From NCBI RefSeq assembly GCF_003019035.1, contig NZ_CP027447.1: a DNA stretch of 64,000 nucleotides, one strand, 5' to 3'. Positions 4,545 to 33,962 of this stretch are shown here, piece by piece (within the stretch, counting starts at the first letter, position 1; each line of letters starts with the position of its first letter). This stretch comes from Escherichia coli. GTDB lineage: Bacteria > Pseudomonadota > Gammaproteobacteria > Enterobacterales > Enterobacteriaceae. The notes beneath the pieces are model-generated. The model ran no database searches. It worked only from the letters and a program-made list of their open reading frames with translations, and had not been told where the DNA came from. The position numbers were made by a program, and so were the translations under genes.

Positions 4545-6082
<1,538 letters not shown>

Positions 6083-30382: not shown

Positions 30383-30693
30383 ATATGTGATAACCTGTTG
30401 CATATGTGGAAAATTTATGCCGCATTTGACGTGGGTTTTAATCCCAGTTTTACGGCAATTTCATGGGCTTTGCCGTAACGAGCTTTGGTCTGTCCATTGA
30501 GAACACGATAGACCTCATTGCGGCTGTAGCCGTGTTCTTCGGCCCAGCGGGTAAACGTGATACCACGCTGACGGAAGAGATTTTTAACTTGTTCGGAAGT
30601 CATTGTTGTCTCCTTTGTTGATGCAATGATGTTTGTTTTATATGTGATAGATTATGTGAACTATTGTTCTCATTGTCAATGAGGTTTATGTGA
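30383..30693. promoter_or_regulatory. five copies of WTATGTGR (candidate repressor/Ner operators)
   Basis: ATATGTGA at 30383 and 30640, ATATGTGG at 30402, TTATGTGA at 30652 and 30686. All five read the same way on the + strand, and the last overlaps the repressor GTG start. Confidence 0.5.
30415..30603 (-). CDS. Ner/Cro-like small HTH regulator, first gene of the early operon
   Basis: 62 aa (ITFTRWAEEHGYSRNEVYRVLNGQTKARYGKAHEIAVKLGLK), divergent from the repressor gene. Confidence 0.7.
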   Translation of the reverse strand: MTSEQVKNLFRQRGITFTRWAEEHGYSRNEVYRVLNGQTKARYGKAHEIAVKLGLKPTSNAA

Positions 30694-31115
30694 ATTTTGA
30701 TTCTCTTTGCGCGTCGCGGTTCAAAGCTGAGCGTTCGCGGTTATCACTCAAGCAGGCTGAAGTAGCAGCCCTTTGTGGCGTTTCAAGAGAAATGTGGGGG
30801 AAATATGAACGAGGGGTTGCTGTTCCCGGAGGTGAGTTACTTGCAGCCTTTGCAAGAATTGGGGCCAATGTACAGTTCATTCTTACCGGGGAGTCATCAG
30901 GTATAACTTTATCACGTGATGAAATGGAGTTACTGCAGCACTACCGGCAAGCACCGTTACAGGTCAAAGGTTCAGTTTTGTCGGCTTTGACTACTGGCTC
31001 CTCCAGAGAACGGGCGGAACAGGTTATTCATGGAGATGTTCTGGGGAATGTTATCAAAGGTAACGTAACCATAGGAACAGGTGGAATAATGAACAAAAAT
31101 ACCAAGAGAAGATGA
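30690..31115 (+). CDS. XRE-family HTH protein, probable prophage repressor (c analogue)
   Basis: GTG start with GAGG upstream. HTH LSLKQAEVAALCGVSREMWGKYERG. Divergent from the early operon. The C-terminal tail is VIHGDVLGNVIKGNVTIGTGG. Confidence 0.75.
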   Translation: MNFDSLCASRFKAERSRLSLKQAEVAALCGVSREMWGKYERGVAVPGGELLAAFARIGANVQFILTGESSGITLSRDEMELLQHYRQAPLQVKGSVLSALTTGSSRERAEQVIHGDVLGNVIKGNVTIGTGGIMNKNTKRR

Positions 31116-32098
31116 GTAAAGAGAAGCAAACAGTTAACGGGGATGTGGGTAACGTTGTCAGCGGTGATGTTACCATTCATAACTATTCTGCTGACATACT
31201 TCCTTCTGCCCAGCAACCAATTTCGTTGCTGCAAAAACGCGATTTACACAGATTGATGGATGAATTGGTTGATCTGGGGGAAAGTAAGCGCGAGCTATGG
31301 ATGACGATCCACACGAAACTTAATACCAAAACAGTTAATGAAATGACTGCGGCTGATTATCATGGTGCGGTTGAGATCCTTCAGAGATATGCACAACAGA
31401 TCCAGAATATGAAGGACTGTAATCTTCTGGTCAGCAAAATAATGGCGCTTACTGACCCTGGGTATCGTCTTGACCGTGACAGATACTGTCTGAAGCATTT
31501 CGGTACAACCCATCTTAAAGGCCTGGACAAAGAGCAGTTGCAGGCTGTGTTTGGTTATTTTGATGATCTGCTGAATATTCGTGATGAGAGTAAAACTCTA
31601 TCACCTCCATCGGAAAGCGGTGCAAAATCAGTCGCAACTGTACCAACCAGAAGCCGGAAGCCTCATGTAGTAGTGTTGGGGGGAGCGTTAGTTCTTGTAG
31701 CAATATTTTTCGTGGGAATGATTGTGTTCGCTGGTAAATGGGGAAATGCTAAAGCAGTAGCTTCTACTGAAACCAGCGTTTTTAACATTAAAACCAACGA
31801 CAAAATAATAGAAGATTCCATCCCCGCACTGCGCAGCATGTTTCCAGGATTAAATAAGTACTCAGATGATTTCCATTCGGTTTCAAGCTACAAGCAAAAA
31901 ACGGGCTGGCATACCCTTAAATTTACTGTATCAGCAAAGGCATCCGTCCCCGAAAATTATAGTGTTAAGGGCAAGGTTTGTTACATTAACATAAACCCTG
32001 ATGGTAGTTATGCTCGGGTTTTGACTGCTCCATGTCGTTCACTGCTACTTGATCAGCAAAGCACTCCTGACAGTAAGTACCGTTTTATTCTTAAATAG
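31112..32098 (+). CDS. orphan 328-aa single-pass membrane protein coupled to the repressor gene
   Basis: ATGA overlap with the repressor stop. The N-terminus is VNGDVGNVVSGDVTIHNY, the TM segment is HVVVLGGALVLVAIFFVGMIVFAG, and about 110 aa follow it. The coding DNA is AT-rich. Confidence 0.7.
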   Translation: MSKEKQTVNGDVGNVVSGDVTIHNYSADILPSAQQPISLLQKRDLHRLMDELVDLGESKRELWMTIHTKLNTKTVNEMTAADYHGAVEILQRYAQQIQNMKDCNLLVSKIMALTDPGYRLDRDRYCLKHFGTTHLKGLDKEQLQAVFGYFDDLLNIRDESKTLSPPSESGAKSVATVPTRSRKPHVVVLGGALVLVAIFFVGMIVFAGKWGNAKAVASTETSVFNIKTNDKIIEDSIPALRSMFPGLNKYSDDFHSVSSYKQKTGWHTLKFTVSAKASVPENYSVKGKVCYININPDGSYARVLTAPCRSLLLDQQSTPDSKYRFILK

Positions 32099-32182
32099 AA
32101 AATAACAGCTGAATTACCATGGGAGCAGAAAAAAGACAAAGGCGATATCATGCTGCGTTCTAAAATTTTAATGTAAAAGGTG

Positions 32183-32290
32183 ATGAACATGGCAGGGATT
32201 CAGGTTATCGCAGGAAGTTTTCCTAAAGGGTGGGCAAGCATGGGGTTCGGTACCATCGTGTTTGCCACCAATCCATGGAACGATGGGTAA
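32183..32290 (+). CDS. possible 35-aa peptide ORF (weak call)
   Basis: MNMAGIQVIAGSFPKGWASMGFGTIVFATNPWNDG, with AAGG close upstream. It lies inside the region between the 328-aa gene and the terminator. Confidence 0.2.
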   Translation: MNMAGIQVIAGSFPKGWASMGFGTIVFATNPWNDG

Positions 32291-32338
32291 TGTCTGCATT
32301 TTCATAATCTGTAAGCCTTTTACAATTATTAAAAATAT

Positions 32339-32448
32339 GGCAGGCTAGTCTGGTCTCGCGAGACTGACTGAACCTCGGTCGGCTCACAGTGCATTCCTGT
32401 GGGACGATGGCCAGCCCGGCTTTCGGGTGCCGGGCTGGTCGTTCTTTC
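32339..32448 (+). ncRNA. candidate structured RNA / 3' UTR element ending in a terminator
   Basis: It contains the 12-nt palindrome GTCTCGCGAGAC, the hairpin CACAG-TGCATTC-CTGTG and a long terminal stem. No ORF on the + strand spans this stretch. The 5' end is a guess. Confidence 0.3.
32411..32448 (+). terminator. rho-independent terminator closing the repressor-side transcription unit
   Basis: CCAGCCCGG-CTTTCGGGTG-CCGGGCTGG followed by TCGTTCTTTC. The stem can be extended by GACGA/TCGTT. Confidence 0.6.
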
Positions 32449-32494: not shown

Positions 32495-32710
32495 TTATCC
32501 GGGGTGATTGTCTGCCTTTATCTGGTCCAGGGCATAAGTGATCCCTTCAGCAAAAACAGAAGTATCGAACTGCTTTTGTATTTCCTGAAAATGAACAGTG
32601 GCACGACAGATACTCAGTTCTCCGCGATGTAACCGGATAATATCTTCCAGAACATTGTTCACTGCTTCGGCACGGCGCTGATGTTCTGTTAACGTTAATC
32701 GGGGATTCAT
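32495..32710 (-). CDS. orphan 71-aa protein
   Basis: Strong SD (TAAGGAG, 6-nt spacer). Its ATG shares 2 nt with the ATG of the divergent 134-aa ORF. Confidence 0.55.
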   Translation of the reverse strand: MNPRLTLTEHQRRAEAVNNVLEDIIRLHRGELSICRATVHFQEIQKQFDTSVFAEGITYALDQIKADNHPG

Positions 32711-33113
32711 GATGCACTCCTTAAATGATGATTTTTATGTACTCACCGGCAAAATATTCTGCCGATTACTGAACACGCATCCGGCACCTCAGGTTTTGAT
32801 TTATTCTGGTTTTTTCGATATCCCGGACCAGGTTGATCACGACCAGAAAAAGTGCCGGTATTTTATTGATACGCTGATATGGCTTCGGGATAACAGCTAT
32901 ATTCGTTACTCTCAGTTGCTGGCTGTGGGAGCGGCTGATGTCGTCCTCACGGAAAAAACGCTCTGTCTGCTCAATGCCATGCCGACCTTTCTGCAGCCCC
33001 GGCCCGTACCATTTAAAGAGTTGCTTCTGGATGCAGTAAAAACCGGCGAAAATGCAGTCATCGCTGAATGCGTATCCCGGATTATGCGTTACGTGTTTAA
33101 TGAACGTAAGTGA
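32709..33113 (+). CDS. orphan 134-aa protein, possibly winged-helix-like
   Basis: Coding-like codon pattern with GGGGA upstream. The segment IDTLIWLRDNSYIRYSQ...VVLTEKTLCLLN loosely resembles a wHTH recognition helix and wing. That reading is an inference. Confidence 0.55.
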   Translation: MMHSLNDDFYVLTGKIFCRLLNTHPAPQVLIYSGFFDIPDQVDHDQKKCRYFIDTLIWLRDNSYIRYSQLLAVGAADVVLTEKTLCLLNAMPTFLQPRPVPFKELLLDAVKTGENAVIAECVSRIMRYVFNERK

Positions 33114-33832
33114 GGTTTATCTGCTGTCTGCATAATCCCGATAGCCAGTGCGAGGGGAAGTAATTCCGGGGAAACTCTTTCAAACAGCGATGCCCATTCT
33201 CCTCTCGCCATCACTCTGTCCAGCCCGCCCCCCAGCTGCATTTCAGCAATCTTCCTGATTTCCCGGAACAACGCCGCTTTGATCTCTTCATGCTCAGCTT
33301 TATTTTCCGGTGTCAGAATGTATTCGTCGAAGAACCGGGGAGGCTGGTTAACGGGGATTGTGTTTACCGGGATGTGTTCCTGTTTCCCGTACTTCGGGGA
33401 CGAACAACATTCTGTTGGCTGACCGGTGAGTTTACGTAACTCCTTCATGAGCAGCTCCTGATCGTAAACTGTCATCAGTGCCGCAATGGTGGCATGCAGT
33501 GCATCGGGCAGTATCCAGGGTTGCCGGCCCGTGGGGCATATAACATCCAGTAGCTCATTCGTCCGACAGATACGCTCCTCTCCGTATGACAACAGGCCCT
33601 GTCCCGTGTATTCCTCCAGCCTGATCACTGTGCCAGCCCGTGGCTTCTGCCAGGTCGTCAGATCATCGCCACTCATACGGCGCTCATTCTCCACGTCAGC
33701 AGCATCGACAATGACGCTGTTTCCGAGTTCCTGTTTCACCACTTCCTCTATCCGCGCCAGTACGTAACTTTTACCGCTGCCCACAGGACCGGACACGGTG
33801 ACAGTGATGACCGGATTCAGTGTATGTGTCAT
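33089..33832 (-). CDS. orphan 247-aa P-loop protein
   Basis: Walker A VSGPVGSGKSYVL at residues 13-25 and a possible Walker B SVIVDAAD. SD GAGGAG. Divergent from the lysis genes, and its 3' end overlaps the 134-aa ORF by 25 nt. Confidence 0.7.
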   Translation of the reverse strand: MTHTLNPVITVTVSGPVGSGKSYVLARIEEVVKQELGNSVIVDAADVENERRMSGDDLTTWQKPRAGTVIRLEEYTGQGLLSYGEERICRTNELLDVICPTGRQPWILPDALHATIAALMTVYDQELLMKELRKLTGQPTECCSSPKYGKQEHIPVNTIPVNQPPRFFDEYILTPENKAEHEEIKAALFREIRKIAEMQLGGGLDRVMARGEWASLFERVSPELLPLALAIGIMQTADKPHLRSLNT

Positions 33833-33904
33833 GTTGCATTCTCCTCTGTGAATAATTCATCGTTTATCCTGCACATCCCGTATCCCCGGCTCTCTTAACG
33901 CGCT

Positions 33905-33943
33905 TTAAAATCCTTCGCGCCCTGTATTTGTGATGCTGTCTCC
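33905..33943 (+). promoter_or_regulatory. late-promoter-like bipartite motif, copy 1 (upstream of the lysis genes)
   Basis: TTAAAATC at 33905 and CTGTCTCC at 33936, with 31-nt start-to-start spacing. TAAAAT is -10-like, no -35 is evident, and a C-tract lies upstream. Confidence 0.4.
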
Positions 33944-33962
33944 ACCAGACAAGGAGACACAC

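Follow-up and report, generated by a model that had tools for sequence, protein, structure and literature searches.

Three neighbouring ORFs in a prophage of Escherichia coli, placed on alternating strands and overlapping at both of their junctions, raise the question of whether they are unrelated orphans or form a unit whose geometry matters. We analysed them within a window of 64,000 nucleotides (the whole stretch of DNA considered here, from contig NZ_CP027447.1), in which they sit between the repressor/Dam and the holin genes, in the variable region of a BcepMu-like transposable prophage. The window represents a hybrid carrying a truncated Dam. All three ORFs were confirmed by the ORF list of the window, and we refer to the 134-aa gene as X, to its small partner as Y (Y1 for the 71-aa copy present here) and to the related domain at the C-terminus of the 247-aa protein as Y2. 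The features of the locus are as follows:

32407..32443, plus strand: hairpin with a 15-bp stem, then UCGUUCUUUC; terminator-like, just upstream of the cassette in the plus-strand sense
32495..32710, minus strand: Y1 gene, 71 aa, phrog_4490, head-to-head with X
32701..32723: dual-use junction of X and Y1, with the SDs of both genes and their common CATG
32709..33113, plus strand: gene X, phrog_2266, 134 aa, running antisense to its minus-strand neighbours
33089..33113: tail-to-tail overlap of X and the 247-aa gene, 25 nt
33089..33832, minus strand: P-loop-DWV fusion gene, 247 aa, phrog_3787
33089..33310, minus strand: C-terminal DWV-like domain Y2 of the fusion, residues about 175-247, paralogue of Y1
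33311..33607, minus strand: middle mosaic part of the fusion, residues about 76-174, absent or replaced in relatives
33608..33832, minus strand: mini P-loop N-terminal module of the fusion, residues 1-75, with Walker A and hhhhD (VIVD)
33833..33960: intergenic region from which the P-loop gene and the holin/lysis/late operon diverge, as given by the gene order

The start codons of Y1 and X are combined in a palindromic CATG at 32708-32711, which contains the CAT of Y1 (32708-32710) and the ATG of X (32709-32711) with a 2-nt overlap and is followed by a second ATG in frame for X at 32712. Ahead of the plus-strand gene, GGGGA at 32701-32705 forms the SD of X, and that of Y1 (CTCCTTA at 32717-32723, reading TAAGGAG on the minus strand) is encoded by codons 3-5 of X. 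An initial annotation had pointed out this start overlap, the reciprocal SDs and the 25-nt overlap at the 3' end of X, all of which are present in the sequence and the ORF list. It was also right in that the stretch between the two minus-strand genes is free of further minus-strand ORFs of at least 60 aa in the ORF list, and in that a minus-strand transcript can only arrive at the 71-aa gene by crossing the 134-aa gene in antisense, as follows from the gene layout. To our knowledge, head-to-head overlaps represent the rarest class of gene overlaps in bacteria.

Each of the three ORFs matched a PHROG family profile over its full length, namely phrog_2266 for X (E = 1.1e-43), phrog_4490 for the 71-aa protein (E = 1.3e-49) and phrog_3787 for the 247-aa protein (E = 1.1e-166), so the earlier label of orphans had to be dropped; all three families are labelled 'unknown function' in PHROG. 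The ORFs are annotated by PGAP in relatives of the prophage and are all under purifying selection, with dN/dS values of about 0.1-0.6 (0.14-0.20 for X versus Serratia, with saturated synonymous sites, and 0.2-0.6 for Y1, which is homologous to a Serratia protein of 73 aa). The codon-position counts of the three genes lean towards position 3. These data bear on the reading that X is an accidental frame opposite an untranslated spacer within an operon of the P-loop, 71-aa and Dam genes on the minus strand, as might be suggested by the genome CP061758, which lacks most of X and has the two minus-strand genes close together (see below), and by the annotators of PhiKM, who left X uncalled. However, the full-length match to phrog_2266, the presence of homologues at 24-53% identity on unrelated phage backbones, the low dN/dS values and the annotation of X by PGAP and other gene callers stand against it. 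We regard this reading as extremely unlikely and, by the homology and dN/dS data, as effectively refuted.

We show that, far from being three unrelated orphans, the genes form an accessory cassette that is mobile and conserved among temperate phages. A Serratia BcepMu-like prophage keeps the trio at 38%, 53% and 46% identity, and in two Salmonella BcepMu-like lineages X converges on the P-loop-DWV fusion and is paired head-to-head with a Y of 69 or 65 aa, the start overlap of X and Y measuring 2 nt or 8 nt. The initial annotation had staked its proposal on the co-occurrence of the three ORFs elsewhere and on the coding conservation of the overlapping frames; the trio occurs together as one unit in E. 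coli, Serratia and also Salmonella, and the dN/dS values indicate coding conservation in all three ORFs. X also has homologues in other Mu-like phages and in P2-like and lambda-like ones. In a Pseudomonas-type lambda-like lineage, the gene order is TerL(-), X(+), Y of 83 aa (-), gpW and portal, with a CATG overlap of X and Y, and all 42 sampled P2-like loci share the X/Y arrangement and an invariant CATG, the arrangement being present in three isolated phages as well. The partner of X in the P2-like loci is a different small protein (phrog_2454), and other small partners were detected at loci L137 and L150. In metagenomes, the CATG is present at 26 of 32 X starts.

The dual-use layout, with an SD upstream of X and a CTCC within X codons 3-5, was found in every lineage compared, and the head-to-head CATG junction with its reciprocal SDs is kept across lineages sharing 26-53% X identity. 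The 3' overlap of X amounts to 25 nt in the window, 37 nt in Serratia and 4 nt and 54 nt in Salmonella, and the lambda-like lineage shows no such overlap, with a 1-nt gap between X and TerL. Because its length varies in this way among relatives, the 3' overlap is not the conserved feature. Because the ORFs are annotated by PGAP, match PHROG families over their full length and are under purifying selection, and because the geometry is kept in Serratia and in other phages, the geometry of the trio exceeds chance.

The cassette is present in 635 of 5,426 complete E. coli genomes (roughly a tenth), including ST131-type clinical strains. The region between repressor/Dam and holin varies among these 635 genomes, and the identities of the trio genes vary independently among the E. 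coli loci, which characterises it as a mosaic region. Two scans of one-genome-per-species contigs revealed no relatives. The P2-like X/Y pair sits beside RT-XRE, Fic or DinI genes in the gpA-gpQ interval of P2, which has been described as a defence hotspot (Rousset et al. 2022, PMC9122126).

X is the constant element of the cassette, whose core is X set backwards in an opposite-strand operon and head-to-head with a small helical partner Y. In every lineage compared, X is opposite in strand to both of its neighbours, and in this prophage it has a Y-family paralogue on either side, namely the 71-aa gene at its 5' side and the fused copy at the C-terminus of the P-loop protein at its 3' side. Because about a third to a half of the X homologues are without a head-to-head partner, X can work alone. 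In a Mu-like prophage of Helicobacter pullorum, X follows Mor on the same strand, which would point to lytic-phase expression in this case, and locus L074 contains an X paralogue that is co-directional with and downstream of the c repressor. Because of the latter arrangement and of the plus-strand terminator ahead of the cassette, which argues for a promoter of its own, X may be expressed in the prophage state.

Neither X of the window nor its Serratia orthologue gave any Pfam match at E values up to 10, and profile searches of PDB sequences with the X alignments came back empty. The best Pfam result among the X homologues was a weak match of a single homologue to YjcQ (E = 0.083). The AlphaFold2 model of X reached a pLDDT of 50, and a Foldseek search of this low-confidence model against the PDB returned noise. 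A UniRef entry names the Serratia orthologue DUF2513, the annotators of Midge called X a putative transcriptional regulator, and a central motif of X (WL..xGYI ... V.LT.KGL..LN, alignment A5) resembles a winged-helix end. As no significant match was obtained in Pfam, PDB or fold searches, the earlier description of the 134-aa protein as 'wHTH-like' is putative at most.

Several of the small partners and the C-terminus of the 247-aa protein belong to a family defined here as DWV-like, which comprises the 71-aa protein, the Serratia proteins of 73 and 89 aa, the Salmonella proteins of 65 and 69 aa, the Pseudomonas-type protein of 83 aa and the C-terminus of the 247-aa protein. The family shares a gap-free core (A..L..I..QL.G..D..RA..W...L......LAEALT..L, alignment A10), and its members are connected by a BLASTP network and by shuffle z-scores of 7-11, with none of 1000 shuffles reaching the score. 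Y1 is linked to the 69-aa protein of Salmonella locus L114 (z = 7.3, 0/1000 shuffles), and this protein in turn to Y2 (z = 8.2); the link is transitive, as the direct comparison of Y1 with the 247-aa C-terminus gave a non-significant z of about 0. Y2 is represented in Serratia by a free-standing 89-aa protein (BLASTP E = 2e-11) and reaches z-scores of 8.2-8.9 versus the 69-aa protein of L114, the 65-aa protein of L116 and the 83-aa protein of L099. By these comparisons, Y1 and the C-terminal ~70 residues of the 247-aa protein are distant paralogues within one small helical family.

An HMM based on A10 recovered DWV-type partners at 11 metagenomic loci with E values of 3e-10 or better, and the family is old and widespread across Proteobacteria and not hypervariable. 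A profile of the same alignment found no match among PDB sequences. The partner in P2-like phages (63/64 aa, phrog_2454) showed no homology to the 71-aa protein or the DWV family that was detectable by hhalign, and we make no claim that all partners of X are homologous to each other. The association of X with the DWV domain takes two geometries, namely tail-to-tail (with the fusion or the 89-aa gene) and head-to-head.

The 247-aa protein is a two-part fusion of a separate P-loop N-terminus and a Y-related C-terminus. As noted in the initial annotation, it contains GPVGSGKS at residues 15-22 and SVIVDAAD at residues 39-46. The former agrees with the Walker A pattern GxxxxGK[ST], with G15, G20 and K21 being invariant in alignments A1 and A4, and VIVD (residues 40-43), a candidate Walker B of the hhhhD type, is conserved. 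In some distant homologues the Walker A is degenerate (GAESSGKN or GAENAGKN), N replacing S/T. The roughly 170 further residues, which the annotation had listed as unrecognised, are indeed present but resolve into mosaic modules, the last of which is the paralogue of the 71-aa protein. Variants of 182 aa are without residues 52-124, variants of 141-158 aa end after about residue 140, and the modules are shuffled among homologues. An exhaustive profile search yielded 65 representative clusters, most of which match residues 1-75 only and have unrelated C-termini, and the ~75-aa P-loop module was found on many mosaic proteins adjoining the holin of BcepMu-like phages. Where the P-loop protein carries a DWV C-terminus (window, L114, L116), X is adjacent; where it does not (L020, L113), neither X nor Y is present.

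None of the Pfam P-loop families scored above its cut-off with the 247-aa protein (best AAA_30, 17 bits vs. 27), the best PDB sequence match was a de novo designed minimal ATPase (E = 0.034), and the AlphaFold2 model was of low confidence (pLDDT 47). We rejected the RefSeq name of the 141-158-aa variants, ABC transporter ATPase: the homologues reached 17.5-18.2 bits versus a cut-off of 25 and did so in the Walker A region only, the ABC models of NCBIfam gave E values of 0.016 or worse, far below their cut-offs, and the 247-aa protein itself had no ABC_tran match in Pfam. Scans of all lineages with Pfam, NCBIfam and PADLOC-DB v2.0.0 revealed nothing significant, with zero PADLOC matches for X or Y. 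Below threshold, the P-loop protein showed similarities to Zeta_toxin (E = 0.12, 12 bits vs. a cut-off of 22), KAP and BrxC/D and, in PADLOC, to SngB and HerA (E = 0.01-0.04, Walker A region only).

Either partner is lost in natural variants of the cassette. In the complete genome CP061758, X is removed by an in-frame deletion corresponding to window positions 32763-33080, with the Y1 and P-loop genes remaining intact. This deletion spares exactly the 54 nt bearing the Y1 initiation region and the 33 nt bearing the 3' end of the P-loop gene and leaves the two minus-strand genes 53 nt apart, as in an ordinary operon. A nonsense allele of X beside intact Y1 and P-loop genes was found in a viral contig (L016). 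Y is lost next to an intact X at four loci (L112, L122, L123 and L126), and these deletions retain the first 19-20 codons of Y, which are located upstream of X. The natural deletions respect the initiation region of the respective partner, suggesting that the expression signals matter.

The hairpin upstream of the cassette at 32407..32443 has a folding energy of -38.8 kcal/mol (z = -4.3, with none of 200 shuffles being as stable in strand folding), and an equivalent hairpin with a T-run is located at the same place in Serratia (L003, 4737-4780). It looks like a terminator that would shield X from repressor-side read-through. A consensus promoter scan found no sigma-70 promoter at 33833..33960, and scans for sigma-70 promoters and terminators inside the cassette stayed at chance level for E. 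coli, Serratia and Midge. At 33895-33908 there is a dyad that is also conserved in Serratia, and the short repeats and palindromes near the junction are insufficiently conserved to call operators. The minus-strand transcript that would cross X in antisense is presumed to originate in the intergenic region at 33833..33960.

The initial annotation had suggested a toxin-antitoxin-like control layer. In an addiction or abortive-infection module of this kind, one protein would be toxic (e.g., a zeta-toxin-like P-loop protein) and another would neutralise it, in agreement with small, tightly coupled, prophage-borne genes in defence hotspots and with the very weak similarities of the P-loop protein to Zeta_toxin, KAP, BrxC/D, SngB and HerA. 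Type II TA systems, including zeta/epsilon, likewise consist of two or three small linked genes on a mobile element, and a Walker A is present here. However, the matches mentioned lie far below the family thresholds and are confined to the Walker A region, and some homologues carry the degenerate version GAESSGKN. The cassette genes are not co-transcribed from one strand as a bicistronic operon, since X is opposite to both neighbours in every lineage, and neither a known toxin or antitoxin family (Pfam, NCBIfam, PADLOC) nor any PADLOC defence model was matched in any lineage. Natural X-null variants with intact Y1 and P-loop genes (CP061758, L016) and Y-null variants with intact X (four loci) argue indirectly against addiction: either partner can be lost next to retained genes of putative activity. 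We therefore rejected the toxin-antitoxin model and consider this type of module very unlikely. It is also distinctly unlikely, in our view, that the trio consists of independent morons packed by mosaic recombination, with the overlaps being incidental compaction of no regulatory meaning. The region is highly mosaic, with the three gene identities varying independently among E. coli loci and the window itself being a hybrid with a truncated Dam; the 3' overlap of 4-54 nt is not conserved, X and Y are each losable, and the P-loop module occurs without X or Y. However, a CATG junction with embedded SDs that is kept at 26-53% X identity on different backbones, the co-occurrence of the DWV domain and X in two geometries, and natural deletions that leave the initiation region of the partner in place all argue against mere compaction.

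Alternatively, X might be a small, Aca-like DNA-binding regulator of the winged-helix type and Y an exchangeable anti-defence or exclusion cargo, the overlap placing the operator of X on the promoter of Y. Partners of the conserved X come from no fewer than two unrelated families, DWV-like and phrog_2454, besides the partners at L137 and L150, and the cassette is located in hotspots; the winged-helix-like central motif, the weak YjcQ match of one homologue (E = 0.083), the DUF2513 name of the Serratia protein and the 'putative transcriptional regulator' label in Midge point in the same direction. The known acr-aca systems, which are co-directional operons of an anti-CRISPR and an HTH regulator, similarly combine a conserved small putative regulator with exchangeable small partners and are inserted at odd positions of temperate phages, including inside structural operons. 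On the other hand, they do not form head-to-head overlaps, X matches no Aca or HTH model and has no significant HTH support in Pfam, PDB or fold searches, the DWV-like partner is old and conserved across Proteobacteria rather than hypervariable, and X is often partnerless. Therefore, we regard a regulator-and-cargo arrangement as unlikely.

Because the geometry is conserved, the trio co-occurs and a minus-strand transcript must cross X in antisense, a regulatory coupling of the overlapping genes can reasonably be inferred. We tentatively favour an antisense-coupled two-state accessory module, in which X would be made when the operon is silent and Y when the operon is read, as a possibility that still falls short of being probable. 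As long as the surrounding operon is silent, which is most likely the case in the prophage, X would be produced from its own promoter, and this promoter would have to lie inside Y1 because the terminator hairpin is located just beyond this gene. When the operon strand is transcribed (from 33833-33960 in this prophage, or with the late packaging operon in the lambda-like lineage), polymerase and transcript would run through X in antisense, shutting down X and producing Y. Y would probably bind pre-existing X protein and neutralise or redirect it, and the DWV-like domain may represent an X-binding module that was recruited by the P-loop protein as an adaptor. The output of the cassette would most likely be a 'moron' function of the prophage (superinfection exclusion, defence or host modulation, for instance), which we propose because it fits the position of the cassette in hypervariable accessory/defence hotspots. 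Several findings speak against this model: the order Mor-X on one strand in H. pullorum, the many partnerless X homologues, the P2-like partner phrog_2454 with no homology to the DWV family in hhalign, the chance-level promoter and terminator scans inside the cassette, and the fold, domain and defence-system searches, which gave no match offering a biochemical handle.

We found no published description of the cassette genes in the literature, including that on BcepMu-like E. coli prophages and on overlapping start codons. Face-to-face promoter switches, in which pR and pL fire convergently across a short common segment and interfere with each other's transcription, are present in P2/186-type phages and follow the same logic as the proposed module, the activity of one strand depressing the other and resulting in alternative expression states. 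In contrast to these switches, which have non-overlapping coding sequences and employ the proteins CI and Apl/Cox, the X/Y cassette has overlapping start codons and RBSs, codes for proteins unrelated to CI or Cox, and is accessory and mobile. The transposable Pseudomonas phage Fc02 contains overlapping genes on opposite strands next to its repressor (olg1/olg2 vs. gene 10); their transcription is divided between lysogeny and the lytic phase, and the products of both give superinfection exclusion (PMC9936078). Both cases involve small, overlapping accessory genes on opposite strands beside the immunity region of a Mu-like phage, and superinfection exclusion is the kind of output proposed for the X/Y cassette. 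However, Fc02 shows extensive antisense coding instead of a CATG junction of start codons, and the likeness noted here is one of gene layout. Like old, tin, retrons and PARIS-type systems, which are defence and accessory cargo of the gpA-gpQ hotspot of P2, the P2-like X/Y pair is located in this interval, and the BcepMu-like cassette occupies an equally variable slot. Unlike that cargo, no version of X/Y is matched by a PADLOC model, and the P2-like pair seems to recur next to variable cargo without belonging to it.

All proteins of the cassette are annotated as 'hypothetical', and this work defines two new protein families and a family of mosaic mini-P-loop proteins. The shared CATG and the reciprocal RBSs are kept across BcepMu-like, P2-like and lambda-like phages of Enterobacteria and Pseudomonas-type hosts, and in the lambda-like lineage the cassette interrupts the essential terminase-portal operon. 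In the broadest version of our proposal, which we regard as plausible but doubtful, X/Y would be an unrecognised, widespread phage switch/effector built on a gene that is set antisense into an operon, even the late terminase-portal one, and has its start codon in common with a partner, and in which the transcriptional state picks which of two interacting proteins is made, with X being active in the prophage as an exclusion/defence factor or a brake on late transcription and Y acting as a lytic antagonist. If true, this would establish a new architectural class of self-regulated prophage modules and possibly a new defence/anti-defence pair. If the two-state model holds, the cassette would represent a compact natural design for mutually exclusive expression and would add to the known defence hotspots an accessory function that is new and likely serves exclusion or defence.

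The arrangement of the three genes was borne out exactly by the ORF list and the sequence, including the shared start codons and SD motifs described in the initial annotation, and the 25-nt 3' overlap and the Walker A motif GPVGSGKS of the 247-aa protein were found in the sequence as well. The following features belong to the cassette and its left-hand surroundings, with the 134-aa gene designated X and the 71-aa gene Y1:

30690..31115, plus strand: 141-aa HTH repressor-like protein, in the module replacing Dam
31112..32098, plus strand: 328-aa protein (phrog_10002), in the same module
32407-32443, plus strand: 15-bp GC-rich hairpin, then UCGUUCUUUC (U-rich tail); −38.8 kcal/mol, z = −4.3
32495..32710, minus strand: 71-aa ORF, Y1 (phrog_4490; ORF list and sequence)
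32701-32705, plus strand: GGGGA upstream of X (sequence)
32708-32711, both strands: palindromic CATG shared by the divergent start codons of X and Y1 (sequence)
32709..33113, plus strand: 134-aa ORF, X (phrog_2266; ORF list and sequence)
33089-33113, both strands: convergent 25-nt overlap of X and the 247-aa gene (sequence)
33089..33832, minus strand: 247-aa P-loop ORF (phrog_3787; ORF list and sequence)

X has a second in-frame ATG at 32712, and its codons 3-5 (CAC TCC TTA) read TAAGGAG on the opposite strand, immediately 5' of the Y1 start. A near-perfect 18-nt palindrome, CGGCAAAATATTCTGCCG, is located at 32747-32764 within X codons 13-19, ~40 nt upstream of the Y1 start on the other strand. 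These codons specify GKIFCRL, the best-conserved stretch of X, and the palindrome could represent either an operator or a mere by-product of the coding sequence.

The small partners of X form one family (Y, or DWV-like), whose members are tied together by pairwise BLASTP and shuffle controls (z = 7-11; 0/1000 shuffles reaching the score). It comprises free proteins from E. coli (71 aa), Serratia (73 and 89 aa), Salmonella (69 and 65 aa) and a Pseudomonas-type lineage (83 aa), together with the C-terminal domains of the 247-aa protein and of two mosaic P-loop proteins, P0055 and P0060. The alignment of all ten is gap-free across a ~50-residue core; direct comparison of the 71-aa protein with the 247-aa C-terminus gave z ~0, the link between these two being transitive only. 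Based on the family links and this alignment, the trio is, as judged from sequence, an X gene with Y paralogues at both sides on the opposite strand, one free and one fused to a mini-P-loop module.

Co-occurrence of the trio elsewhere, which the initial annotation had suggested checking, is found in prophages of Serratia and Salmonella. A Serratia BcepMu-like prophage shows the matching layout of Dam (minus), 73 aa (minus), 139 aa (plus), 89 aa (minus) and holin (plus), with the same CATGATG junction, a 3' overlap of 37 nt, and identities of 38% to the 71-aa and 53% to the 134-aa protein. Because its 89-aa protein aligns only to residues 182-233 of the 247-aa protein (46% identity, E = 2e-11), the latter represents a fusion. 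An exhaustive profile search with the P-loop protein yielded 65 representative clusters, most of which have only residues 1-75 in common (consensus MTxTLNPTITITVSGPTGSGKS...IIDAPD...W.KPRSGTIFKLEE), followed by shuffled, unrelated C-terminal modules; several members of this mini P-loop family carry a degenerate Walker A motif (GAESSGKN). The 75-aa module (window 33608-33832) heads mosaic proteins of 200-364 aa (P0049-P0076). The RefSeq name of truncated variants, "ABC transporter ATPase", is unsupported by the data. In Salmonella prophages, P0060 and P0055 end in the C-terminal domain of the 247-aa protein. Next to each comes a phrog_2266-like gene (147 or 168 aa) that converges on it and overlaps it, and beyond this a small head-to-head gene (69 or 65 aa) whose overlap measures 2 nt (CATG) or 8 nt. 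Mosaic proteins without this domain (loci L020 and L113) have neither X nor Y as a neighbour.

The junction extends to other phage lineages. Using the Serratia X protein as tblastn query, we found homologues of 26-27% identity in the P2-like phages Midge (Escherichia), ST147-VIM1phi7.1 (Klebsiella) and FSL SP-004 (Salmonella), where a 143-aa X is oriented head-to-head with a 63/64-aa gene and CATG is common to both, an arrangement kept in 42/42 related viral contigs. No homology between this partner (phrog_2454) and the DWV family could be detected. The cargo beside the P2-like pair differs (L028 3071-4307; L030 1068-2108), the neighbours being a reverse transcriptase and an XRE regulator in ST147-VIM1phi7.1, a Fic-type gene in FSL SP-004 and a DinI-like gene in Midge. 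In a lambda-like lineage with Pseudomonas relatives, an X of 145-146 aa stands in reverse orientation, flanked by the large terminase gene and gpW/portal, and shares CATG head-to-head with an 83-aa DWV-type Y (L099 2233-2923); this insertion site recurs at ~20 viral and metagenomic loci (among them L104, L107, L108 and L119-L134). There, X lies inside an essential late operon, with the small partner present in some loci and missing from others. A metagenome scan revealed the CATG context at 26 of 32 X starts; 11 loci carried an HMM-confirmed DWV-type partner overlapping by 2 nt or directly abutting, 2 had other small partners, 3 retained just a Y remnant of 20 codons, and about 12 were partnerless. 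Throughout all lineages, X is preceded by an SD motif, and CTCC in its codons 3-5 provides GGAG to Y. The 3' overlap shows no conservation, its length varying between 4 and 54 nt or a gap of 1 nt taking its place. The cassette represents an X/Y module that is conserved in several temperate phage families and joined at start codons shared by both genes. A second, divergent phrog_2266 paralogue (~27-32% identical to X) occurs without a head-to-head partner in some BcepMu-like prophages (L010 3070-3534, also L073 and L074-L079); in L010 it is located between Dam and a hairpin, and in L074 the c repressor and a 178-aa membrane protein lie upstream of it.

Escherichia phage PhiKM, which is assigned to Bcepmuvirus, shares 95.7% identity with this region of the window, and a prophage of E. 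coli CUVET21-PYO5 shares 99.1%. The BcepMu-like order runs from transposase and early genes (minus) via a c-type HTH repressor (plus) and Dam (minus) to the 71-aa (minus), 134-aa (plus) and 247-aa (minus) genes, followed by holin, SLT transglycosylase, spanins, terminase and head genes (plus). Matches to the segment were present in 635 of 5,426 complete E. coli genomes, covering almost all of it in 477. The repressor-holin interval is hypervariable among prophages: certain ones contain only a 158-aa P-loop protein without the 71-aa or 134-aa gene, others a DUF2441 protein instead. The window itself is a hybrid (30690-32305): of Dam, only the N-terminal 45 aa remain (32168..32305, including PIVPWIGGK). 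In most relatives the Dam methylase gene precedes the cassette, and in the window a plus-strand module takes its place; the resemblance of its 328-aa protein to Flk is weak and stays below threshold (46 bits, cut-off 353; E = 3.5e-12), and the HTH/328-aa module also occurs in cassette-less prophages (L020, L021).

Pfam, NCBIfam and PADLOC contain no model matching X or Y from any lineage, and PDB profile searches were empty. AlphaFold models were of low confidence, the single fold search returned noise, and P-loop matches were confined to the Walker A region and below every family cut-off. The "wHTH-like" label of X goes back only to motif resemblance and a sub-threshold YjcQ match. Regarding expression, the hairpin at 32407-32443, a short way upstream of the cassette in the space separating the Dam start from the 71-aa gene stop, looks like a plus-strand terminator; its position is kept in Serratia, there with a clean T-run. 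With this hairpin upstream, X probably has a promoter of its own inside Y1; consensus promoter scans were uninformative. In L010 and L074 a hairpin follows the plus-strand X paralogue, and from this position the window hairpin may be a leftover terminator of such a paralogue. One BcepMu-like prophage has its X paralogue co-directional behind the c repressor, compatible with prophage-state expression, whereas X follows Mor in a Helicobacter Mu-like prophage, which is at odds with it. A dyad, TTAACGCGCTTTAA, in the P-loop/holin intergenic region (33895-33908) is kept in Serratia as TTAAAGCCCTTTAA (L003, about 5705-5720), ~70 nt upstream of the holin start, and may be a Mor-type activator site for the late promoter.

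That X is a spurious plus-strand ORF is hardly conceivable, because each of the three supposed orphans has a full-length PHROG match (to families all of unknown function), PGAP calls all of them in relatives, and the coding conservation that was to be checked is evident from dN/dS (Nei-Gojobori) and codon-position bias. The values were ~0.2-0.3 for the 247-aa gene, 0.07-0.67 across E. coli alleles and 0.14-0.20 versus Serratia for X, and mostly 0.2-0.6 for the 71-aa gene, for which a handful of nearly identical pairs that differ by very few substitutions exceed 1; variable sites favour codon position 3. The toxin-antitoxin-like control layer of the initial annotation has become very improbable in view of natural knock-outs. 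In E. coli O68:H12 strain 97.3, window 32763-33080 is missing through an in-frame 318-nt deletion that spares 17 codons at the start and 11 at the end of X as well as both minus genes, and in one viral contig X is interrupted by a nonsense codon at residue 41; conversely, four lambda-like loci have Y reduced to its first 19-20 codons beside an intact X. Either gene is therefore tolerated without its partner, a point against toxin-antitoxin addiction. The X ends retained in strain 97.3 are exactly those that carry the Y1 initiation region and the 3' end of the P-loop gene, and the stubs kept in X and Y knock-outs alike are segments that would carry the expression signals of the partner. An incidental juxtaposition of the genes appears improbable, and an Aca-like regulator with its effector is somewhat less so, though still unlikely.

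We tentatively prefer an antisense-coupled, two-state model with a moron-type output. Because X and Y are antisense to each other at their 5' ends, with X running against the Y-carrying operon, the two would be made in alternative states: operon-strand transcription through X, starting here in the divergent region 33833-33960 and supplied in the lambda-like lineage by the late packaging transcript, would silence X and produce Y. The DWV domain is associated with X in two different geometries, and mosaic proteins carry it only where X adjoins; both observations suggest an X-binding role for Y. The P2 gpA-gpQ interval is an accessory/defence hotspot (Rousset et al., PMC9122126). Cassettes reside in this interval and in the variable slot of BcepMu-like prophages, a location that points to a moron-type function, e.g., exclusion or defence. 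Phage Fc02 provides a precedent for the expression we infer here: near its repressor, genes that overlap on opposite strands differ in being expressed in the lysogenic or the lytic state, and both mediate exclusion (PMC9936078). Literature searches yielded no description of the X/Y module, and its proteins are "hypothetical" in all sources. The cassette is more interesting than three orphans: from its function and regulation as we infer them, it would be an accessory prophage module whose control is antisense or convergent.
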